A stretch of DNA of 64,000 nucleotides from Escherichia coli (GTDB taxonomy: Bacteria; Pseudomonadota; Gammaproteobacteria; Enterobacterales; Enterobacteriaceae), in NCBI RefSeq assembly GCF_030013595.1, contig NZ_CP122768.1; one strand, written 5' to 3'. The notes under the pieces are model-generated. The model ran no database searches, was not told the DNA's origin, and worked only from the letters and a program-made list of their open reading frames with translations. The position numbers were made by a program, and so were the translations under genes. Shown here piece by piece: positions 23,835 to 37,684 of this stretch; position 1 is the stretch's first letter; each line of letters opens with the position of its first letter.

Positions 23835-26681
23835 TCAGAAAGTCACATTCAGCGTGGCCTGACCGTTATAACCTTCAGCGCTGCTGCCGCTGACGCTGTG
23901 GGCATAACCGGCCTGAACGCCCAGGGTGATATTTTCCCGGACACGGGCTTCCAGTCCGGCCTGCAGGTCCAGTGACGTGCCATTCTGGGATGGTGAGAAC
24001 GTCATGTTACTGCCGGCTGCGGCTGTACCCATGCTCATGTCACCCCGGGAGCTGAAGGTGCGGATAACAGAAGGCTGTACCCACCAGTTCACCGGCAGTT
24101 CACGCACACTGTGTTTTGCACTGTCGCGCAGGGTGTCACGGGATGAGGTGCCTTCACCAAAGGTCATATCGTTGTGGCTGCCCAGACGGAAACCGGCACG
24201 CACATGTTGTGCACTGCCATGCCCGAACTTCACATAACCGGCGTTATCCTGGCCGTCATCCAGGGAAAGTCCCTGCCAGGTATACTGCAGTTGTGGCTCC
24301 AGCATCAGGTTGTCAGTGATACTGAAGGGCAGACCGGTTTCCAGTGAGCCCAGCCAGCCCCAGCCCCGGGCGCGGAAGTCGTTATTGTCCGATGACGCTT
24401 TCATGCTGTGGCGGGTTCCCTGTGCCACAATGTCAGCCCACAGGCCGGAGGACGTGTGTGTCAGATTCAGGTATCCGCCCAGGCTGCCGGCATCATCCCG
24501 GACCGTGCCGGCACGGGAGCCGTCATCATCCTTAACATCAACGGAAGAATGGCCTGCAGCGCCATATACCCCCGTGGTCACAGACATACCGGCAACCTCT
24601 GTTCTCAGCAGGTCACCCTCCAGACGGACGAAGCCATAGCTGCCGCTGCTTTCCGGCGTGGCCCCACGGGCAATACCGCCGTTGTTATCGTGACCGAGAT
24701 GACCGCCCTGAATGCTGAGACGGACGCTGTTATTTTCACCGTTTACACCGGTCTGATGGCTGCGGGAGCCTGCCAGAATCCGGTCATAGTCCATTGCCTG
24801 TGTCAGCATGGAGGCATACAGGGGGACTTCAGCACGATAAGCATTTTCACTGCGCAGGTACCAGTCTTCATCGCTGTCACGGTTCAGGGTGTAGTTAAAG
24901 ACACCGGCCTGAAGCGGGCGACTCAGGGCAAACGCACCTTCTTCTGTGGTGGCACCATTCTGTGCATCCACAACCCGGATACCCTGTCCGGAGGTTGCCA
25001 CCCCGAGGTTACTGTTTCCGACATTTGTGAACGCAAGCCAGGTTTTGCCGGTTGCCTGACCACCATTAATCACCAGCTGGTCAGGGGCATTGCTGCCATC
25101 AAGGCGAACACGCATATTGATGGTGCCACCCTGACCGGTGAGGTTACTGGTGGTCAGTTTATGGAACGTTACCGGGGCGTCGCCTTTTGCAACAGCACGG
25201 CTCAGGACGGCATCCTGTGTCGTCTGATTATCAAAGCGAATCTCCCCTGCGTTAACAATATCGCCGGTACTGACCACATCACCATTCAGTACCATGCTGG
25301 CGCCTTTACTGAGCTGTGTTCTGCCACTCAGACTTCCCCCGGCAGCCAGCATCAGTGTCCCACGATGTCCGACAGTGGTGTTGCTGGCCTGTCCCCCGGC
25401 ATTAACCGTAAAGCTACCGCCATTTTCCAGCAGCAGGCCGCTGGCCTGACCGGATATACCATCAATACTGAACTTACCGCTGGCATTGGTCCCCTCAACA
25501 GTGGCACCACTGTCTGCAATCAGGGCACCACCGGATGTCATGGTGACACCTGTTGCCTTACCACCGGCAGACACTGCCAGGGTACCGCCGTCATCCACCC
25601 GTGTTTTCTGCGCTGAATGGCCCTCCAGTACATCCAGGCGACCGCCGGACTCCAGAACAAGGCCGTCAGCCTTACCGTTTTCCACCGTGAAATTGCCCAG
25701 ACGGTTGCTGCCGGTGACGGTTGCCGCCGTACTGGTGACCAGTGCGCCCCCCTGCTTCAGGGTGACATTCGTGGCTGTACCACCGGCGTTCACCTGCAGC
25801 TTGCCTTTCTGGTTAACGGTGGTGAAATCCGCCAGACCACCTTCCTTGATAATCTGCCAGCCGTCACTGTTTACAACAGTGCCAGACGCCGTACCGCCGT
25901 TGTGCACATACTGGTACCCCCCATTCAGCGTGGTATCCAGTGCGTGACCATGTACAGTCTGGTCGCCGCCGGCATAAACCACAGTGGTATTTACCGTTCC
26001 TTCAGCAGCCACAATCTGACGACCATTTTTATTGATGGTGGTGCGTACGGCATCTCCGTAGACGGTCTGCCCGGTATCACCATTTTCTGCATCCGGTCCC
26101 CCTTCCGCGCCGGTATTCACAACCGTGTCGGTTGCCACTGCGCCGGATTTGACGGCCTGCCAGCCCTTCTCATTAATGACAGTACCCGTTGCAATCCCGC
26201 CTTCATGTACCCACTGCTCACCGCCGTTCAGAGTGGTGTTCACTGCCTGCCCCTGAAGGCTCTGTCCGCCTCCGGCACTGATAACCGTGTCTGAAACGCT
26301 TCCTCCGGCATTCACTCTCTGAAGACCACCACCGGTGACAGTAGTGTTGTTGGCGATACCGCCATTTTGTATCCATTGTCCGCCGGTATTGGCCTCGTTA
26401 TCCGGCCCATACTCCAGACCGGTACTGATGGTCATTCCGTTGGCCGTACCGAAGACAATCTGGTTGTCATGATTTTCCAGTGTTCCGCCGCTCACGGTTT
26501 CTCCCGTCTGTACAACCGTGTCAGCAGCCAGTGCCGGGACTGATGTGACAGCAGCAAGAGACAGCGCAACCGCCACACCGGCGCGTTTTCCCCGTGAGCG
26601 GGCCAGTTCGGAGGTCACCACCAGGGTGCCCGTAATGTGATTCCATACCAGCCTGTAGCTGGTGTTCAGATGTCGTTTCAT
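23835..26681 (-). CDS. flu: Antigen 43 (Flu) self-associating autotransporter adhesin
   Basis: Extended autotransporter signal peptide [45 protein letters not shown]; repetitive beta-helix passenger; beta-barrel ending in aromatic F; 948 aa from this start (ORF track start 26756). Confidence 0.9.
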
Positions 26682-26894
26682 CAGCTTTTCCTTACAGAGG
26701 GTGAATAAAAAAGCCGGTACCCACAAATATGGGTACCGGCAGGTACAAAACAGCATGGTCAGATAAAGTGGTTTTTCCCGGACATAAATGCTTCTCCTCT
26801 CTCATCCGCCAGAGAAGTATCAGTCCGTTGTGTGCAATTCCGTTCTGCATGATGAAGAGATTCAGCTGCCTTTTCGCAGACCATTAACCACTAT

Positions 26895-27052: not shown

Positions 27053-27922
27053 TCAGAAGAAAATCCAGTTCCATACAGCGCGGGCAACAGAGACCACCGT
27101 GTCACGGACGACACGCAGAACCGTACGAGCCACAGAGGCAATACAGACGCTCTCCGCCGTGTCAAATATCCGGTCCACCGCACCGGTAAACTGTTCACGG
27201 GCCTGCCCCCGGACAGATTCCGTGCACAACTCGTCCTGCAGGCGGGTCATCAGGGGACTGGCGGCATGGTCGGGAAGTGCTGTCATGAGCGCACTGACCA
27301 GCGTATCCAGTTCCCAGCCGGTGCGGGCCGATACGGCCACAACCGGATGTACGGGCCGGAACAGCCGGAATACCGCATCTGTTTTCTCACGAATGTTCTG
27401 TTCCTGTGCGGGAGAAGGCTGAATACCTGCCATATCCCATTCATGGCAGGGCTCCGTTTTGTCGGCCTGCGTCACCACAAACAGCACCTGCTGATGTCCC
27501 CGGTGCAGGATGTGTCGCCAGAAATACTCATCCACAGACAGGGCACGGTCATCGGCTTTAATCAGCCACAGTACCAGGTCAAGTTCAGGCAGAATGTCAC
27601 GGTACAGGGCTTCATACTCTGCATCCCTGTCCCGGCTCTCGCCCACCCCGGGTAGGTCAGTGATAACCATGCTGTGACCATGGCCACTCAGACGGAAGCG
27701 CTGCGCTTCCCGGGTGCCGGCGTGAACATCACTGACCGGGGTGACCTCCCCCTGAAACAGTGCATTACAGAGTGAGGATTTACCGGCCCCGCTTTTCCCC
27801 ATAATGCCAATCACGGGTTCGTGGCTGGTGAGTTTGCGCAGATGTTCCAGGATGTGACGGGAAAGTGAGTAAGGAAGAGAAGAAAGTGGTTTTTCAATTG
27901 CCTCAATGGCATCAGACGGATT
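27053..27922 (-). CDS. YfjP/YkfA/YeeP-family GTPase
   Basis: Walker A GIMGKSGAGKSS, G3 DLPG, G4 TQADK; start set at MNPSDAIEAIEK; ORF track start 27964. Confidence 0.85.
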   Translation of the reverse strand, partial: NPSDAIEAIEKPLSSLPYSLSRHILEHLRKLTSHEPVIGIMGKSGAGKSSLCNALFQGEVTPVSDVHAGTREAQRFRLSGHGHSMVITDLPGVGESRDRDAEYEALYRDILPELDLVLWLIKADDRALSVDEYFWRHILHRGHQQVLFVVTQADKTEPCHEWDMAGIQPSPAQEQNIREKTDAVFRLFRPVHPVVAVSARTGWELDTLVSALMTALPDHAASPLMTRLQDELCTESVRGQAREQFTGAVDRIFDTAESVCIASVARTVLRVVRDTVVSVARAVWNWIFF

Positions 27923-28255
27923 CATACATGTATTCCCGGTGAAAAAAGACAAAACCCCGCGCACCGGAAAGGTGGCGGGGGATTCACGGAGATAATATCT
28001 GTCTGAAATTATTTAGGATGCAGGTATCTTCAGATAATCGCACCCCCAGAATTTTATTCTTAATAGTTGAATAGTGGTATTTGGTTTCCCTGAGAGAATA
28101 TAAAGATGAATCATGCTGTATTGAGTTTGATTCTATTTGTACTGAGACAGGTATCTTCATGATTATAATCAAAAGCCGGGTGGATTGGTCTGGCGCTAAT
28201 TATTTTCTCGAATAAACTCACTAATTATTGTAACCATCCCAAAGGAGATGATTTT

Positions 28256-30400
28256 ATGTATAATTGTGGTGAATCATATTCAGAATACGACATATCATTA
28301 TCTGACGATGAAAACTATAACGATGACTATTATCGTGAGCGCCCGTGCCCGGGAGAAGTTTTCGGCTATGATAATGATGTACCACGGTTTAGTAAGATTG
28401 CACGGTCTTATTTGCTCCACGTGGGTAGCCTTGACTGGACCAAGATAAATCCGGATATCTTTGGCTCCATGATTCAGGCAATTGCCGAAGATGAAGAGCG
28501 CGGAGAGCTGGGTATGCATTACACCAGCGTACCCAACATCTTAAAAGTTTTGAATCCACTATTTCTTGACGACCTGCGTGCACAGCTGGACGAGGCTGGT
28601 GACAATCCACGTATGTTGCTGAACCTGCGCAAACGCATTTCCCACATTCGTGTGTTCGACCCAGCGTGCGGTTCTGGGAACTTTTTGGTTATCGCGTATA
28701 AGGAAATGCGTGCCATTGAGGCCGAAATCAACAAGAGGCGCAGTGAGCCGGATCGTGCCTCGGATATTCCACTTACCAACTTTCGCGGGATTGAACTACG
28801 AGATTTCCCGGCAGAAATCGCCCGCCTTGCGCTTGTTATCGCTGAGTACCAATGTGATGTGCTGTACCGTGGGCTGCGGCTGGCCTTGGCTGAGCTTCTT
28901 CCTTTACGCAACGAAAATTGGATTACTTGTGGCAATGCACTGCGGCTCGACTGGTTAAGAATTTGTCCGCCAACGGGAACCAGTGTGAAATTACATGGTG
29001 ACGACTTGTTTGGATCACCGCTTGATCAGGCAGAGATTGACTTTGAAAATGAAGGAGGAGAGACATATATTTGTGGAAATCCTCCATACAAGGGTAGCCA
29101 AACCCAAACTGATGACCAAAAAAATGATCTAAAAGCCATATTCGAGAAACGCACAACTAATTGGAAGTCATTGGATTATGTTGCAGGTTGGTTTATGAAG
29201 GCTGTCGACTACGGTAGTCAAACTAACTCGTCTGCTGCGTTCGTCTCAACTAATTCCATTTGTCAAGGTAGACAGGTCGAAACCCTTTGGTCGTTGATTT
29301 TTGCAGCCAAGCATGAAATATCCTTTGCTTATACGTCCTTCAAATGGGCAAATCTTGCTAGCCACAATGCGGGAGTGAGTGTCATTGTTGTGGGAATTTC
29401 TAATCATGTTAAGGGCCCCCGGAAAATATTTTCCACAACTGAGGATTTGGGGACCATCATAAAAGAAGTAGACAACATCAATGCGTATCTTGTCGCGGGT
29501 AAAAGCACAATTGTTGCACAGCGAAGTTTTCCTTTATCCGAAGTAAGTGTAATGGATTTTGGTTCAATGGCGAACGATGGTGGTGGCCTTCTTTTTGACA
29601 GTTCAGAATCAAGTCGTGCAGTTAATGATTATGGTGCTGATATTTGTTATTTTCGAAAGGCTTGGGGAGCTAAGGAGTTTATTTCTGGAACTCCTAGAGC
29701 TTGCCTGTGGTTAAATAAAGACAGTGCTAAAAAAGCAATTCTGAACTCTTGGATTTCAGACCGAATTGAGATCACACGTAAGGCCAGAGCAAATAGTCCT
29801 CGGGCAGCGACAAAAAAACTAGCAGATATTGCTTACAGATTTGGTGAAGTGAGGCAAGACGGCAGCGAGCGAATCATTATTGTTCCCAGTGTCAGTTCTG
29901 AACGTAGGGAGTATCTTCCATGTGGTTATCTCGATGTTGGTTCAATCGTTATCGCTCCGAATCTTGCTTTCTATGATTCCCCGCTTTGGAATATGGCGCT
30001 TATTGCTTCTAGGTTGCATTTGGTATGGGTGGCGACAGTCTGCGGGCGTATCAAAACTGACTATCGCTACTCTAATACCCTTGGCTGGAATACTTTCCCT
30101 GTCCCACCACTCACTGAGAAAAACAAGGCCGACCTTACGCGTTGCGCAGAGGATATCCTACTGGCGCGGGAACACCACTTCCCTGCGACTATTGCGGATT
30201 TGTATGATCCCGCGAACATGCCCCCTGACCTGCGTGCTGCCCATGAACGAAACGACGAAGTGCTGGAACGCATCTATATAGGGCGACGATTCAAGAACGA
30301 CACTGAGCGGCTGGAAAAGTTGTTCGACCTCTACACGAAAATGATTGCTTCGACTGCACCGGTCAAAGGTAAGAAGCGCAAAGCAGGAAATAACGAATGA
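28256..30400 (+). CDS. N6-adenine DNA methyltransferase, gamma-class, MmeI/PglX-like, without nuclease domain
   Basis: 714 aa; strong SD aaaggaga 8 nt before ATG; SAM motif I VFDPACGSGNFLV at about aa 135 and catalytic motif IV CGNPPYKG at about aa 277; upstream HYTS helical region; about 430 aa C-terminal presumed target-recognition region. Confidence 0.8.
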   Translation: MYNCGESYSEYDISLSDDENYNDDYYRERPCPGEVFGYDNDVPRFSKIARSYLLHVGSLDWTKINPDIFGSMIQAIAEDEERGELGMHYTSVPNILKVLNPLFLDDLRAQLDEAGDNPRMLLNLRKRISHIRVFDPACGSGNFLVIAYKEMRAIEAEINKRRSEPDRASDIPLTNFRGIELRDFPAEIARLALVIAEYQCDVLYRGLRLALAELLPLRNENWITCGNALRLDWLRICPPTGTSVKLHGDDLFGSPLDQAEIDFENEGGETYICGNPPYKGSQTQTDDQKNDLKAIFEKRTTNWKSLDYVAGWFMKAVDYGSQTNSSAAFVSTNSICQGRQVETLWSLIFAAKHEISFAYTSFKWANLASHNAGVSVIVVGISNHVKGPRKIFSTTEDLGTIIKEVDNINAYLVAGKSTIVAQRSFPLSEVSVMDFGSMANDGGGLLFDSSESSRAVNDYGADICYFRKAWGAKEFISGTPRACLWLNKDSAKKAILNSWISDRIEITRKARANSPRAATKKLADIAYRFGEVRQDGSERIIIVPSVSSERREYLPCGYLDVGSIVIAPNLAFYDSPLWNMALIASRLHLVWVATVCGRIKTDYRYSNTLGWNTFPVPPLTEKNKADLTRCAEDILLAREHHFPATIADLYDPANMPPDLRAAHERNDEVLERIYIGRRFKNDTERLEKLFDLYTKMIASTAPVKGKKRKAGNNE

Positions 30401-32442
30401 ACAATAAAATCAAGAATGTACCTTCCGTTTCCGTTACTTATGCACGTAATGGCGCATCAACCAAAGCTAATGTGCTTGGGATGCGTCCTATGCAGGAGAG
30501 AGCTTATGAAAAGCGCGGCGAGCAGTACTTGCTTATCAAATCACCACCGGCATCAGGTAAAAGCCGCGCACTGATGTTCATAGCACTCGACAAACTCGAA
30601 AACCAAGGGATTAAACAGGCAATCATCGTTGTGCCGGAAAAATCTATCGGCGCGAGTTTCAACGATGAACCGCTATCGCAGTTTGGATTCTGGGCTGATT
30701 GGCATGTCGAACCTAAGTGGAACCTATGCAACGCGCCCGGTAACGACAACGGGGGCAAGGTAAGATCTTTTGGCTCTTTTCTTGAAAGTAGCGACAAGGT
30801 GCTTGTTTGCACACACGCAACCTTTCGCTTCGCGGTCGATGCCTATGGCGTAGAAGCGTTTGACGATCGCCTGATCGCCGTCGATGAATTCCACCATGTG
30901 TCAGCTAACCCGGATAACAAGCTTGGTCAGCATCTGGGGCAGTTCATCGCGCGTGATAAGACACACATCGTTGCCATGACCGGCTCCTACTTCCGTGGTG
31001 ATGCGGAGGCCGTTTTGGCTCCTCAGGATGAGTCCAGGTTCGATACCGTCACCTATACCTACTACGAACAACTCAACGGTTACGAATACCTCAAGCAACT
31101 CGATATCGGCTACTTCTTTTACAGTGGCTCCTACGTCGATGACATCCTTAATGTCCTCGATCCTGACAAAAAGACCATTATCCATATACCCAACGTCAAT
31201 TCGCGCGAGAGCACGAAGGATAAAATCAAGGAAGTGGAGCATATTCTTAGCGAGCTTGGCGATTGGCAAGGTGCGGATCCTGCGACTGGTTTCCAGCTAG
31301 TCAAATGCCTCGATGGCCGAATGTTGCGTATAGCTGATCTGGTGGACCCAACTAGTCAAGGCAAGATTCAGGAAAGCCTTCGTGCTGCAGAAATGAAGAC
31401 AGACCGTGACTATGTAGACATCATTATTGCACTTGGTATGGCGAAGGAAGGTTTTGACTGGATTTGGTGCGAACATGCGCTGACCGTTGGCTACCGTGCC
31501 AGCCTGACTGAGATCGTGCAGATTATCGGTCGCGCTACTCGCGACGCGCCGGGTAAAAACCGCGCAAGGTTTACTAACCTGATCGCCGAGCCGGATGCTG
31601 TTGAGGGGGCTGTCACCGAGGCAGTCAACGATACCTTGAAAGCCATCGCGGCAAGCCTGCTGATGGAGCAAGTATTAGCTCCGCGCTTCGAGTTCAAGCC
31701 TAAGAACCCAGAAAGTGGTCCGGCCCCAGGCTTTGATTATGGTGATGGTGGATATGACCCGGATAGCTGTAATTTTGGTGTTAATGAGCAGACAGGGACG
31801 TATCAAATCGAGATTAAGGGACTTGCCGAGCCCAGGAGCAAAGAGGCGGCACGCATCTGCCAGGAAGATTTAAACGAAGTGATCGCGGCCTTTGTGCAGG
31901 ATAAGCCCGCCATCGAACGAGGCCTGTTCGATGAAGAGCTGATTCCTGAAGAGTTAACTCAGGTTCGTATGGGTAAGATCATCAAAGAAAAGTATCCTGA
32001 GCTTGATGCTGAAGATCAGGAGGCTGTACGTCAGCATGCTATCGCCGCCCTTAACCTCACGCAGCAGGCCAAGCGTCTTGCCACCGACGATAACGATGGG
32101 ACGCTCAATACTGCTCTTATTGACGGAGTGCGTCGCTTTGCGATGGATGTGCGCGATTTAGACATAGACCTTATCGACCGCATCAATCCCTTTGGTGAAG
32201 CCTACGCTATCCTTGCTAAGACGATGAGTGAAGACAGTTTGAAGCAGGTCGCGGCGGCAATCTCGGCCAAGCGTACCTCGATCACACCTGAAGATGCCAA
32301 GGTGATCGCCAAGCGTGCCGCTGAATTCAAACGTGAACGTGGCCGCCTCCCATCGTTAACTTCGCCGGATGCTTGGGAAAAACACCTTGCTGAAGGTGCA
32401 GCTGCGTTTATGCGTTTTAGGGCGGAGGGACGTTATGAATAA
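30397..32442 (+). CDS. SF2 (DEAD/DEAH, ResIII-like) helicase with about 300 aa uncharacterised C-terminal extension
   Basis: 681 aa; ATGA overlap with MTase stop; Walker A SPPASGKSRA, DExH box IAVDEFHHV, motif III MTGSYF, motif VI QIIGRATRD. Confidence 0.8.
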   Translation: MNNKIKNVPSVSVTYARNGASTKANVLGMRPMQERAYEKRGEQYLLIKSPPASGKSRALMFIALDKLENQGIKQAIIVVPEKSIGASFNDEPLSQFGFWADWHVEPKWNLCNAPGNDNGGKVRSFGSFLESSDKVLVCTHATFRFAVDAYGVEAFDDRLIAVDEFHHVSANPDNKLGQHLGQFIARDKTHIVAMTGSYFRGDAEAVLAPQDESRFDTVTYTYYEQLNGYEYLKQLDIGYFFYSGSYVDDILNVLDPDKKTIIHIPNVNSRESTKDKIKEVEHILSELGDWQGADPATGFQLVKCLDGRMLRIADLVDPTSQGKIQESLRAAEMKTDRDYVDIIIALGMAKEGFDWIWCEHALTVGYRASLTEIVQIIGRATRDAPGKNRARFTNLIAEPDAVEGAVTEAVNDTLKAIAASLLMEQVLAPRFEFKPKNPESGPAPGFDYGDGGYDPDSCNFGVNEQTGTYQIEIKGLAEPRSKEAARICQEDLNEVIAAFVQDKPAIERGLFDEELIPEELTQVRMGKIIKEKYPELDAEDQEAVRQHAIAALNLTQQAKRLATDDNDGTLNTALIDGVRRFAMDVRDLDIDLIDRINPFGEAYAILAKTMSEDSLKQVAAAISAKRTSITPEDAKVIAKRAAEFKRERGRLPSLTSPDAWEKHLAEGAAAFMRFRAEGRYE

Positions 32443-33613
32443 TTCTGATTTAGACGATTTGGCAGCAGAACTTGCCGAGTTTGCACCACCTGAGAAGAAA
32501 AAAGGACGTCCAGCCAGCGAGGAACGCATCATAGCCGGTTTTGAAGAGATCCAGCGCTTTACTGAGCAACATGGGCGTGTCCCGCAACATGGCGAAGAGC
32601 GTGATATCTTCGAGCGTCTCTATGCAGTGCGGCTCGACCGCCTACGCAGTCTCCCAGACTGCCGTGCCTTGCTAGAGCCACTGGATCATCAGGGCTTATT
32701 AGCTGGAGGGGGCGATGTAGCGGAGTCTGCGGACGAAATTATCGATATCGATAACTTGGCTGCCGAACTGGCGGATGTTTCCAGCGAGGACGATATCACG
32801 GTCTTGCGTCATGTTCGTGCTAGCACCGAAAAGCGCGTTGTACAAGGAGTTGCGGATCGCAAGCCGTGCGAGGATTTTGATGCGTTCAAACCACTATTTG
32901 AGCAGGTACGCAATGATCTAAGTTCAGGGTTAAGAGTGACCCGACCTTTTGGGCAGTATGCAACGATTGAAGTGGGTCATTGGTTTATCCTGGATGGTCA
33001 AACGGCTTATGTGTCTGAGGAAGGTGAAGAGTTCGATTCTCCACAGGGGAAGAAAGATGCTCGGCTGCGTGTCATTTATTCGAATGGTACAGAAAGCAAC
33101 CTACTTCGGCTGTCATTGGTTCGTGCTTTGTATAAAGACGAAACAGCGCGTCGAATTACCGATCCAGACATGGGGCCTTTATTCAGCGATGCTCTAGAAG
33201 AGAGCGATCTAGAAAGTGGCACTATTTATGTGTTGCGTTCGCTATCTGATAACCCTTATGTAGCTGAACATCGTGATGTCATTCACAAGATTGGAGTGAC
33301 TGGCGGCAAAGTAGAGGCGCGTATTGCCAATGCGGAACACGATTCCACCTATCTGTTAGCGAAAGTCGAGGTGGTAGCTTCATACAAGCTTGCAGGCATC
33401 AACAGCACCCGGATGGAAAACCTGTTTCACAGGTTGTTTGCACCCGCAAGGCTTAACATTACCATTAACGACCGTTTCGGCCATCCAGTGCAGCCCGAGG
33501 AATGGTTTCTCGTTCCGTTATTCGTTATCGATGAGGCTGTTGCACGTATTAAGGATGGTAGCATCATTGGGTATGTTTATGACCCCATGTCTGCGAAACT
33601 GGTGAAGGCATAG
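32435..33613 (+). CDS. Protein with C-terminal T5orf172 / GIY-YIG-superfamily domain
   Basis: 392 aa; start ATG 32435 overlaps the helicase stop by 8 nt and has GGAGGG SD; C-terminus GTIYVLRS...HKIGVTGGKVEARI...ENLFHRLF...EEWFLVP matches the T5orf172/GIY-YIG pattern; N-terminus has two acidic repeats DLDDLAAELAEF and DIDNLAAELADV. Confidence 0.7.
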   Translation: MNNSDLDDLAAELAEFAPPEKKKGRPASEERIIAGFEEIQRFTEQHGRVPQHGEERDIFERLYAVRLDRLRSLPDCRALLEPLDHQGLLAGGGDVAESADEIIDIDNLAAELADVSSEDDITVLRHVRASTEKRVVQGVADRKPCEDFDAFKPLFEQVRNDLSSGLRVTRPFGQYATIEVGHWFILDGQTAYVSEEGEEFDSPQGKKDARLRVIYSNGTESNLLRLSLVRALYKDETARRITDPDMGPLFSDALEESDLESGTIYVLRSLSDNPYVAEHRDVIHKIGVTGGKVEARIANAEHDSTYLLAKVEVVASYKLAGINSTRMENLFHRLFAPARLNITINDRFGHPVQPEEWFLVPLFVIDEAVARIKDGSIIGYVYDPMSAKLVKA

Positions 33614-33650
33614 TGAAGTGACACACTGAATTTGGCCACCTGTTCTGAGG
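33614..33650 (+). repeat. IS3-family (IS911-like) terminal inverted-repeat-like sequence abutting the stop codon of the T5orf172 gene
   Basis: TGAAGTGACACACTGAATTTGGCCACC starts one base after the TAG stop; shares TGAAGTG...GGCCACC termini with the IR at 33838-33864. Confidence 0.5.
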
Positions 33651-33837
33651 TGAGTATATCACCTCAGAACAGCACAGGAATAAAAGATACTGATTTGAAT
33701 GTGCCTATACTTTGTGATGTGAGGATCAATGAATAGTAACCTGATCAAGATATGTTACCGTGGTGAGACTGGTGAAAGTGGTGAAAGTGATCTAAGAACA
33801 TTGATACTTGGTGAGATTCTATATATCTCACTATGAA

Positions 33838-34426: not shown

Positions 34427-36191
34427 ATATCACGAACGGTGCAATAGTGGTTCTTCCGCAACTTGGGTGGAAGAAAATGGATGAAACTTTCTGGTGAACA
34501 AGGATCTAAGCTGTTTTAAGTTATGGGCAACGCAATGCACTCTCTTAAGACACTTCTACAGTTACCTTGCGGATGGCGATGCAGTCGACAAATTATTAGC
34601 TCTGACGGTATCACCCTCCATCTCCACGGAAAACGCAAAACAGCACAATGTCCTGAATGCTCTAAGCGTAGCGACTCTGTTCATAGTTCTCGTCGGCGCC
34701 GGATACAGCATCTACCCTGCTCCGGGCAGACGCTATGGCTTGTATTTTCCGTCCGCCACTGGTACTGCCGTAACCCGGCTTGTTCACGTAAAATTTTTGC
34801 CGAGTCGCTTGCTCCCTTCGCCGGTTCACACCAGCAGTCTTCACAGGCGTTACAAAATTTACAACGTCAACTGGGATTAATAGCTGGAGGTGAGGCTGGA
34901 AAACGGGCTGCAACGGCAGCGGGTCTCCGTTGCAGTGCTGATACTCTTCTTCGCAGGGTTATCAATACCCCGGAGACGAAACAGTCAGGCGCGCCTCATG
35001 TCGGTATTGATGAGTGGGCGTGGCATCGGGGCCACTGCTGCGGTATGTTAATAGTCAATCTTGATACTCACCGTCCCCTCGTCCTGCTTCCCGGCCGTGA
35101 TCAGCGTACGCTGGCGACCTGGTTCAGAAAATATCCGGAAATACAGGTTGTCTCGCGTGATCGCAGTGGAGTCTATGCGACAGCAGCACGTGAAGGTGCA
35201 CCTCAGGCCAGACAGGTGGCCGATCGATGGCACCTGCTAAAAAATATTGGTGATGAGCCTGAACGAATGATGTACAGACATATACCTCTGATACGTCTTG
35301 TTGCCAGTGAGTTGTCACCAAAGAAATCACCTGAGCCAGAACTGTCTGTGCCTGCAGCATCGCTCCGTCGTCCGGAACGCCTTAAACAGCAAACCCGCAA
35401 AAAACGGCATCAGCGTTGGACAGAGGTTATGGCCCTGCATAACAAGGGATGTAGTTTCAGGGAAATATCCCGTATTACAGGCCTGTCGCGTGTGACAGTC
35501 AGTCGCTGAGTACGTTCAGGAACATTCCCTGAAATGTCAACCCGACCTCCAAAGCGAGGGCTTTTGGACCCATGGAGGGAGTGGTTAAAAGAGCAACGAG
35601 AAAGTGGGAATTATAACGCCAGCCGGATAATGGCGGGAAATGGTGGTCCGGGGGTTTACAGGCAGTGAAACCATTGTCAGGGATACTGTTGCCAAATGGC
35701 GTAAAGGCTGGATCCCACCGGTTACTACTGCCGTCAGACTTCCTTCAGTGTCCCGGGTAAGGCGCTGGTTGATGCCCTGGAGAATAATCAGGGATGAAGA
35801 AAATTATGCTTCCCGATTTATTAGTCTGATGTGTGAAAAAGAACCGGAGCTGAAAATAGCGCAGCAACTGGTACTCGAGTTCTACCGTATTCTGAAAACC
35901 CAAAATAAATCACAGCTTAGCAGCTGGTTCACTCGAGTCCACGAAAGCGGTTCAGCAGAACTTCGGCGCGTGGCTGCGGGGATGGAAGCTGATGCTGCGG
36001 CTATATGTGAGGCAATCAGCAGTCGCTGGAGTAATGGTGTTGTCGAAGGTCATGTAAATCGCCTGAAGATGTTGAAACGCCAGATGTATGGTCGAGCCGG
36101 ATTTGAACTGCTCAGGCAGAGGGTCATGAGTCCACTGGCATGAAAATCTCCACCCAAGTTGCGGAAGAACCACTTTTCATCCGTCGTTGAC
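34427..36191 (+). mobile_element. ISL3-family insertion sequence nested in IS66 tnpA
   Basis: Perfect 23 bp terminal inverted repeats ggttcttccgcaacttgggtgga (34449-34471) and tccacccaagttgcggaagaacc (36149-36171), extending imperfectly outward; removing 34427-36196 restores the IS66 tnpA frame. Confidence 0.75.
34523..36143 (+). pseudogene. ISL3-family transposase, disrupted by an in-frame stop and a frameshift
   Basis: Two ORFs (34523-35509 and 35640-36143); N-terminal zinc-finger-like HLHGKRKTAQCPECS and C-terminal WSNGVVEGHVNRLKMLKRQMYGRAGFELLRQRV typical of ISL3 transposases; TGA at 35507-35509 followed by a frame change. Confidence 0.75.
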
Positions 36192-36498: not shown

Positions 36499-36840
36499 AT
36501 GATAAATCTTCCCGCAGGCACAAAAATCTGGCTGGTTGCCGGTATCACCGATATGCGCAACGGCTTCAATGGTCTCGCCGCAAAGGTGCAGACAGCGTTG
36601 AAAGATGACCCGATGTCCGGCCACGTCTTCATCTTCCGGGGCCGCAGCGGCAGTCAGGTCAAACTGCTGTGGTCCACCGGCGACGGACTGTGCCTGCTGA
36701 CCAAAAGGCTGGAGCGTGGCCGCTTCGCCTGGCCGTCGACCCGCGATGGCAAAGTGTTCCTGACGCCGGCGCAGCTGGCGATGCTGATGGAAGGTATCGA
36801 CTGGCGACAGCCAAAGCGGTTACTGACGTCCCTGACATGT
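36499..36840 (+). CDS. tnpB: IS66-family TnpB (orf2)
   Basis: MINLPAGTKIWLVAGITDMRNGFNGLAAKVQTALKDDPMSGHVFIFRGRSGSQVKLLW...GIDWRQPKR matches IS66 orf2; ATGA overlap with preceding tnpA frame; 3' end merges into the truncation junction. Confidence 0.7.
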
Positions 36841-37684
36841 TGTAGCCCAGGTCTTCTTCGTTGATAAAGTTCACATCCAGAGGATGGATACTTCCTGTAG
36901 CCCGTAATATCGTCGGTTCAATATCCTGCACATTCATCGGGATCACCGATGCAAGAAAAGCCCATTGATCAGAATAAGGCTGGAAATTAATATCAACAAA
37001 AACGCTTCCCCCCGATGCACGCGGTCTTTTTTGCAGAGGTAACGCGATAAGATTACCAAATCCTCCTTTTGGCATAGTATCCTGATTAGGAAATAATCGG
37101 TCATAAGAACTCAATTGCAGCTGTCGGGTCCGGCTGCACGTATAGCTAATAATAGCAGTCCCCAGACGGCGAGCTTCGCGGGCCGAAACTCGTGAAGCAA
37201 AAAATATCCAGACATGCGCTCCCTGACGTGAGCGGGATATTTCCAGCGCAGCAGGTACACTCAGCTCATCACAGGCTCGCATGAACGCGGATGCATCCTT
37301 CTGCCATTCAGCTTTATCAAAATCAACAGCCAGAAAATAACAGGAATCATCTTCCAGCAACGGATATAACCCGGCAGTATGCGTGCCTGCCAGATGCTGG
37401 TAGATGACAAGATCAGATACAGGGAGTAACTGACGGTGCGTACAGTCCCCGCATTTTATCCGGGGTTTACCGCATATTCTCGCCTGCCATTCGTTAGCGC
37501 AGGCAGGAGAGTACCCTGATTTGCCGCTGGTTTTACTTTCCCAACGAAGGGCCCATATATCATCACGCCCACGAAACAACCGACGAAATAATGCAACCTT
37601 CTCGTCGGTGGATAATACGGAAACGCGCTGCACAGGGCTCGGCGGTTTACGTCGCCATTCCAAGTAATGAGACCAGACGGGCAT
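36841..37684 (-). pseudogene. Archaeo-eukaryotic primase (AEP / Prim-Pol)-like gene, 3'-truncated by the IS66 remnant
   Basis: N-terminal LFRRLFRGRDDIWALRWE, DxD motif FLAVDFDK, GAHVWIFF and GGFGNLIALP motifs; the last third of the listed 341 aa ORF is antisense IS66 tnpB sequence. Confidence 0.6.

Follow-up and report, generated by a model that had tools for sequence, protein, structure and literature searches.

What a gene for a nuclease-like protein contributes at the end of a tightly packed operon, whether the two genes in front of it are its partners, and whether this particular copy can still do its work are the questions raised by a locus within the 64,000-nucleotide (nt) stretch of Escherichia coli DNA (contig NZ_CP122768.1, assembly GCF_030013595.1) that was analyzed here and is referred to as "the window". 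The gene of interest, hereafter gene 3, closes a run of three overlapping plus-strand genes:

28256..30400, + strand, truncated MmeI-like (YeeA/DnmA-type) N6-adenine methyltransferase (MTase), matching PADLOC REase_MTase_IIG (PDLC03598) at 9.1e-226
30397..32442, + strand, YeeB-type superfamily 2 (SF2; DEAD/ResIII) helicase of 681 amino acids (aa), matching Pfam DEAD at 9.6e-6 and ResIII at 2e-5
32435..33613, + strand, gene 3, YeeC-type protein of 392 aa, stop codon 33611-33613

As judged from sequence comparisons, gene 3 encodes the YeeC of E. coli, an orthologue of the last of the three proteins in the yeeA(dnmA)-yeeB-yeeC triad, and the finding is, in this respect, an ordinary orthologue in an already described system. 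What is new is a family-wide twin motif, a four-module architecture, an invariant residue set, an MTase deletion allele private to this genome and a hotspot for cargo genes. The reading that we favour, if with some reserve, is that the triad represents a Type I-like, split-function restriction-modification (R-M) system, and that its copy in the window has been disabled by the loss of the MTase N-terminus.

Assignment of Gene 3

Gene 3 begins with an ATG at 32435, 7 nt after a GGAGG, where it overlaps the helicase stop (ATGAATAA), and is translationally coupled to the helicase gene, the start of which overlaps the MTase stop. The identical 392-aa coding sequence is annotated in RefSeq for other E. 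coli genomes as a "GIY-YIG nuclease family protein" (WP_001065545.1), from which the window copy differs solely by R324S. Searches against Pfam matched residues 262-372 to T5orf172 (PF10544; independent E-value 3.9e-11) and residues 284-372 to MUG113 (PF13455; 5.8e-13), both of which we take to be families of the GIY-YIG clan. The assignment of T5orf172 to this clan has also been made elsewhere (PMC8263062). The GTIYVL, KIGVT and EEWF motifs are all found in the protein, and an alignment of 87 family sequences leaves F148, Y265, K285, G287, R296, L307, E328, E356 and W357 invariant, so that the GIY tyrosine, the catalytic arginine and the glutamate of EWF are all fixed. Both the profile matches and the Tyr/Arg/Glu set place the protein in the GIY-YIG superfamily (T5orf172/MUG113 branch), and its C-terminal domain is, going by these residues and profiles, of the T5orf172/GIY-YIG type with an intact catalytic-type constellation. 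An earlier note on this DNA, made by a model without any database searches, had read just such a domain from the letters and had proposed the profile search that bears it out; both residues it had picked out, the tyrosine of IYV (Y265) and the arginine of EARI (R296), belong to the invariant ones.

Scans of gene 3 against PADLOC and NCBIfam returned no family, and no named defence system can be given for it on that account; a phmmer search against the sequences of the PDB yielded only an E1 four-helix bundle at chance level (E about 1).

Membership in the YeeA(DnmA)-YeeB-YeeC Triad

The BLASTP comparisons that carry the assignment were made to Bacillus subtilis and Vibrio crassostreae YeeB and YeeC references rebuilt from the machine-read Fig S5 of PMC9973331 (for YeeC, 374/382 and 411/415 residues, respectively). 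Gene 3 aligns with B. subtilis YeeC at 36% identity over 357 aa (E 2e-53) and with V. crassostreae YeeC at 32% over 410 aa (E 1e-48), while the helicase, whose C-terminus is extended by about 250 aa in a way specific to the family, is 48% identical to YeeB of B. subtilis (E 0) and 43% identical to its V. crassostreae counterpart (E 1e-180). The Walker A lysine of the helicase lies in the GKS of PPASGKSRA.

For the first gene, the comparison has to be made with the full-length 928-aa E. coli MTase (domains MmeI_N, MmeI_hel, MmeI_Mtase, MmeI_TRD and MmeI_C, TRD standing for target recognition domain), which matches MmeI (PDB 5HR4) by phmmer at E 4.1e-132, in an alignment that begins only at MTase residue 88, corresponding to MmeI residue 108. 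The PD-ExK residues of MmeI are presumably D70/E80/K82 (the ExK being E80-x-K82), and at this stretch the full-length E. coli protein reads ...NNIHILASK..., with no ExK discernible by eye; the region itself is deleted in the window. Morgan et al. (2009) distinguished two sets of MmeI homologues, with or without the PD-ExK motif, the latter being "invariably" flanked by a DEAD-type (YeeB-like) helicase and a conserved (YeeC-like) protein with GIY-YIG motifs (PMC2731913). Since its alignment starts past the motif and no ExK is seen, the full-length E. coli MTase falls within this second set. A YeeC-like third gene, a YeeB-like helicase upstream of it and an MmeI-like first gene devoid of PD-ExK are, therefore, all found together. 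The earlier note was right about the operon partners, an MmeI-like methyltransferase and an SF2 helicase; the pairing that had seemed unfamiliar to it had, in fact, been described as the dnmA(yeeA)-yeeB-yeeC triad by Morgan et al. in 2009 (PMC2731913). When the literature was searched for a name or mechanism given to the triad more recently, no papers other than those cited here turned up.

The family of gene 3 is large and conserved from end to end, with a length of about 380-420 aa. Its matches among 90%-identity clusters exceed 8000, with many 80-96% identical ones in Pseudomonas, Alcaligenes, Stenotrophomonas, Enterobacter and others; among 50%-identity clusters, 2390 match at E < 1e-3 and 581 of these at E < 1e-30. 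Members are spread over 228 plasmids of Gram-negative and Gram-positive hosts and at least 590 GTDB species representatives, and the triad, including the 928-aa MTase, is present in 67 complete E. coli genomes, strains EC416 and 2022H047 being examples with an intact operon. Among the 80 loci examined (the best species-level loci among the related ones, numbered L003-L082), 78 have a detectable helicase homologue immediately in front of the gene-3 homologue, a full-length MmeI-like gene precedes the helicase wherever the flank suffices, and the triad recurs, again with overlapping genes, in relatives of just 35-37% identity; conservation of this synteny has also been pointed out by the authors of PMC9973331. 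Identities across these loci range over 66-98% for the helicase, 59-94% for gene 3 and 54-75% for the MTase, the helicase being the most conserved of the three, which fits a variable specificity subunit served by a constrained motor.

Exceptions were also seen: at L063 (7001-8158), the gene-3 homologue has no helicase or MmeI-like gene detectable within 7 kb, and at L086 (9623-10282, - strand), a second, short T5orf172 gene (219 aa) adjoins the triad. In many loci (L005, L009, L013, L018, L029, L038, L046, L053 and others; e.g., L018 3127-4925), one or two unrelated genes follow the MTase stop and precede the helicase start. Their products include a PADLOC PDC-S05 (RhuM-like) match (1.3e-150) as well as one of 556 aa, for which the CARF/Csa3-type and Argonaute-associated matches are weak. 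The gap between the MTase and helicase genes of the related loci looks like a hotspot for cargo within the operon. Type I R-M loci, too, carry variable cargo genes inside the operon. No insert separates the MTase and the helicase in the E. coli triads, that of the window included.

Twin Acidic Motif and Module Architecture of YeeC

An AlphaFold2 (AF2) model of the gene 3 product, computed from the 87-sequence alignment, reached a mean predicted local distance difference test score (pLDDT) of 84.8 and a predicted template modelling score (pTM) of 0.42, and thus depicts well-folded modules in an undefined arrangement. The following parts are delimited, with the ranges of pLDDT given in brackets:

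32447..32482, + strand, acidic amphipathic repeat 1, DLDDLAAELAEF, residues 5-16; predicted short helix 6-14 within a flexible N-terminal tail (residues 1-25; about 62-77)
32510..32710, + strand, small helical domain, residues 26-92, with conserved F36, F42, HGR-P50, E60, R66, L67, D84 and L89 (77 for residues 21-30; 91-95 for residues 31-90)
32744..32779, + strand, acidic amphipathic repeat 2, DIDNLAAELADV, residues 104-115; predicted helix 105-113 within a low-confidence linker (residues 94-140; about 48-58)
32855..33169, + strand, middle domain, residues 141-245, one helix and a small SH3/Tudor/KOW-like beta barrel (84-97)
33209..33610, + strand, T5orf172/GIY-YIG-type nuclease domain, residues 259-392, with invariant Y265, K285, G287, R296, E328, E356 and W357 (about 88-97)

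YeeC is, according to this model, built of four modules: a flexible tail/linker bearing the repeats, a helical domain, an SH3/Tudor-like barrel, which holds the invariant F148 and a conserved RLRVIF-NGTE motif within the middle domain, and the C-terminal T5orf172/GIY-YIG domain. A putative GIY-YIG fold match was seen to SLX1; a Foldseek search of the model against the PDB gave no match at E <= 0.001. To see whether YeeC and the helicase share a helicase-associated-like module, the two were compared by BLASTP, with no significant result (E > 10).

The two acidic repeats are both present in the N-terminal half, as had been noticed from the letters beforehand, with their starts 99 residues apart rather than the about 120 then stated. 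They are identical at 8/12 positions without gaps, a score reached in 1/200 shuffles of the protein, and the two halves match each other in BLASTP at E 2e-4. Both positions hold, throughout the 87-sequence family alignment, a degenerate form of one motif (acidic residues followed by L-L-x-E-L-G), so that the repeat is no chance feature of a single sequence, and the N-terminal half of V. crassostreae YeeC likewise has twin acidic motifs.

Methyltransferase Deletion in the Window

The MTase of the window, which the earlier note had called MmeI-like, is not the native gene but a 714-aa in-frame fusion produced by a 2291-bp deletion, joining 39 codons of a 60-aa hypothetical open reading frame (ORF; WP_000282126.1) to residues 254-928 of the 928-aa native protein. 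The MTase, TRD and C-terminal domains are retained, MmeI_N and MmeI_hel are gone, and the PADLOC REase_MTase_IIG match spans only positions 260-910 of the 912 in the profile. A BLASTN comparison with E. coli EC416 locates the junction:

28372..28375, no strand, deletion junction with TAAT microhomology

The 2291 bp missing here comprise remnants of IS66 (an insertion sequence, IS) and the first 253 MTase codons, both of which are kept in other E. coli genomes, and a 401-bp query spanning the junction (coverage 80% or more) found it in 0/5426 complete E. coli genomes. Because the retained part of the MTase gene shows 0 nt differences from EC416 and the helicase gene is likewise identical, the deletion looks recent. 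At the amino-acid level, the window has 0 changes in the helicase and 1 in YeeC. The locus is probably a recently disabled, restriction-minus system, in which the helicase and YeeC are intact but probably uncoupled from site recognition, with a nuclease that is intact but probably stranded. The intact state of this helicase and nuclease suggests that the pair is not toxic alone, or that the fusion still methylates.

Could the window locus instead be a fully working restriction system, with YeeC and YeeB docking on the retained MTase, TRD or C-terminal parts? In favour of such a scenario, the reading frame is preserved across the fusion, the protein keeps the motif X region, NPPY, TRD and C-terminal domain, and further mutations are absent. 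We still deem it unlikely, as every locus with sufficient flank retains the complete N-terminal region, the deletion is shared by none of the 5426 complete E. coli genomes, and the native upstream region was removed along with the N-terminus.

Proposed Mechanism and Alternatives

If the triad is indeed a Type I-like, split-function R-M system, the MmeI-like YeeA would read an asymmetric site through its fused TRD, with the host protected by N6-methyladenine (m6A) methylation, YeeB would act as an SF2 motor for ATP-driven translocation, and YeeC would cleave the DNA by means of its GIY-YIG domain, while the N-terminal modules of YeeC, the twin acidic helices among them, would serve to anchor it on the helicase, on the N-terminal domain of the MTase, which has no nuclease, or on both. 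In the Type I-like scheme that Morgan et al. proposed, a single strand is modified, and the helicase and the nuclease dock on the altered N-terminal domain (PMC2731913). That the N-terminal region of YeeA is kept in all related loci with enough flank suggests that it is under selection, and the loss of its 253 residues (MmeI_N and a helical spacer) in the window would uncouple recognition from cleavage. A more daring and distinctly tentative version, which we consider doubtful, would make the twin acidic helices a bivalent docking device, holding one nuclease on two motor/MTase units or bridging the helicase and the MmeI-like N-domain in a distinct class of R-M. Should this be true, the class would be single-strand-modifying, helicase-driven and GIY-YIG-cutting, and the deletion in the window would constitute a natural separation-of-function allele with recognition uncoupled from cleavage.

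What is known of the relatives speaks for both sides. In V. crassostreae 7F1_18, inactivation of yeeAB led to the loss of resistance to one phage group (Piel et al., bioRxiv 10.1101/2021.05.05.442762), a phenotype that may not carry over to the window copy, as the N-terminus of its MTase is missing. B. subtilis YeeA is the m6A methyltransferase DnmA (PMC7261158, Nye et al. 2020; PMC9973331, 2023).

Several points weigh against the split-function reading. Deletion of yeeB or yeeC in B. subtilis left plasmid uptake and the sensitivity to three phages unchanged, and phage genomes show no avoidance of the DnmA site (both PMC7261158, PMC9973331). H284-K285 occupies the place in gene 3 where the second GIY-YIG tyrosine would be expected, to which it can be added that T5orf172 proteins commonly lack this "YIG" tyrosine, their motif being Gx(I/V)Y...YK(I/V)G (PMC9973331 Fig S5). 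The docking itself was modelled in a fused AF2 construct (MTase residues 1-255, helicase 425-681 and YeeC 1-148; 11 paired sequences), which turned out poor (mean pLDDT 60, pTM 0.32), with repeat 2 not ordered; the pLDDT of repeat 1 was 59-74 in this poor construct versus 62-66 in YeeC alone, and that of repeat 2 was 37 versus 55-58. Furthermore, the single promoter-like site upstream of the truncated MTase is no better than chance, and the scan for promoters and terminators as a whole was no better than shuffles.

Two alternatives to split-function restriction concern the role of YeeC itself, and to each of them we attach a low probability. YeeC could be a non-catalytic, "domesticated" T5orf172 protein that binds DNA or regulates the MTase or the helicase, the triad being mainly epigenetic/regulatory. 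T5orf172 was originally proposed as a DNA-binding domain, according to a work cited in PMC9973331, and the title of PMC8096241 tells of a phage satellite that tunes gene expression by means of a "domesticated endonuclease"; in B. subtilis, moreover, DnmA acts like an orphan MTase: gene expression is influenced by it, and a restriction phenotype is lacking (PMC9973331, PMC7261158). It is, however, hard to explain without catalysis why the catalytic-type Tyr, Arg and Glu should be invariant in 87 diverse sequences, and both the phage resistance conferred by the V. crassostreae system and the strict coupling of the gene to an ATP-dependent motor speak against this alternative.

The helicase-nuclease pair could also be an abortive-infection/toxic effector that degrades DNA indiscriminately, that of the host included, with the MTase merely licensing or restraining it, a scenario that we find just as improbable. 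It would agree with the DnmA motif not being depleted in phage genomes (PMC9973331), with Vibrio defence being limited to one phage subgroup, and with the suggestion of the earlier note that the nuclease might be toxic without the methyltransferase. Deletion of dnmA in B. subtilis, though, causes no growth defect (PMC7261158), and the window has a truncated MTase, yet its helicase and YeeC carry just the 0 and 1 amino-acid changes mentioned above, which argues against strong toxicity of the pair once the MTase is altered, unless the fusion still methylates.

That gene 3 might be a free-standing T5orf172 homing endonuclease adjoining the other two genes by chance, given how common such domains are in the homing endonuclease genes of phages (PMC10448857), is effectively refuted by the synteny in 78/80 loci and in 35%-identical relatives and is hardly credible in view of the conserved full-length architecture with its 250-aa N-terminal half, the translational coupling to the helicase gene and the lack of a phage or intron context.

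Comparison with Known Systems

The triad of B. subtilis (DnmA-YeeB-YeeC) shares with that of E. coli the three proteins, their order and orientation, an MTase N-terminus without ExK, and a GIY-YIG/T5orf172 domain at the C-terminus of the third gene product. The E. coli helicase and YeeC are, however, longer than their B. subtilis counterparts, retaining C-terminal stretches that the Vibrio proteins have and that are missing in B. subtilis, and the MTase of the window is truncated by the deletion. The V. crassostreae 7F1_18 yeeAB(C) element is a homologous triad, twin acidic motifs of YeeC included, and the only triad member with a demonstrated anti-phage phenotype, although it resides in another host and another genomic island.

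MmeI, a single-chain Type IIL/IIG enzyme, is homologous to the MTase of the triad in its MTase, TRD and C-terminal domains, and its single-strand modification logic probably applies to the triad by analogy, as Morgan et al. (2009) argued. MmeI cuts by its own N-terminal PD-ExK domain and without a helicase, whereas in the triad cleavage would be left to the separate helicase and GIY-YIG proteins. Classification of the locus as an MmeI-type IIL/IIG single-polypeptide R-M system was rejected, there being no ExK in the full-length orthologue and no N-terminus at all in the window. With Type I and Type ISP R-M (HsdR of EcoKI/EcoR124I; LlaGI/LlaBIII), the triad has in common an m6A MTase/TRD, an SF2 translocase and a nuclease; it differs in that the nuclease is a GIY-YIG one rather than PD-(D/E)xK or Mrr, is a separate polypeptide and not part of a single chain, and no HsdS is present. 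An assignment to Type I R-M proper was also rejected: the TRD is fused to the MTase, the helicase has no nuclease-domain match, the GIY-YIG nuclease is separate, and no HsdS-like ORF is found in the operon.

Among other T5orf172 nucleases, ICP1 Gp88/Odn, an origin-directed nuclease (PMC8263062), resembles YeeC in combining the T5orf172 catalytic domain with an N-terminal targeting module, and is among the points in favour of a cutting role for YeeC. Odn is targeted by a RepA-like DNA-binding domain and acts alone, unlike YeeC, the N-terminal modules of which are unrelated and tied to an operon with a helicase and an MTase.

The widespread triad thus still shows conflicting phenotypes, defence in Vibrio and none in Bacillus, 17 years after its first description. 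The twin docking-like motif, the invariant catalytic residues and the natural N-terminal deletion allele offer handles on how its nuclease is recruited. PADLOC has no model for YeeC, its matches to the helicase are only weak and unrelated, and the MTase is still labelled REase_MTase_IIG, so that defence-annotation tools see only a "Type IIG" methylase.

Genomic Context

Past the end of the operon, one further feature was read from the sequence:

33640..33672, + strand, inverted repeat of 14 bp, perfect (CTGTTCTGAGGTGA / TCACCTCAGAACAG), around a 5-nt loop, 27 nt past the gene-3 stop

It is possibly the operon-end hairpin; a T-run is absent after it.

The operon sits in an island (about 20000-45000 of the window) that represents a CP4-type integrative element, now degenerate, adjoining proA/proB at tRNA-Thr. 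The island carries YagK/YfjJ and YfjI genes, IS fragments and the following genes:

23835-26756, - strand, Ag43
27053-27964, - strand, YeeP-like GTPase

As cargo of this island, the YeeABC operon is flanked by the GTPase gene on one side and by IS debris on the other. Related strains carry antirestriction, RadC and CbtA/YeeU genes on the island flank. The gene for an ISL3-family transposase at 34523-36143 is broken up into ORFs of 328 and 167 aa; in the closest genome, E. coli 2022H047, the gene at this place is whole (539 aa). Another decayed conflict-system gene of the island is found at 36659-37684 (- strand); what is left of it encodes part of a "TOTE conflict system archaeo-eukaryotic primase domain" protein, annotated as a frameshifted pseudogene in the closest genomes.

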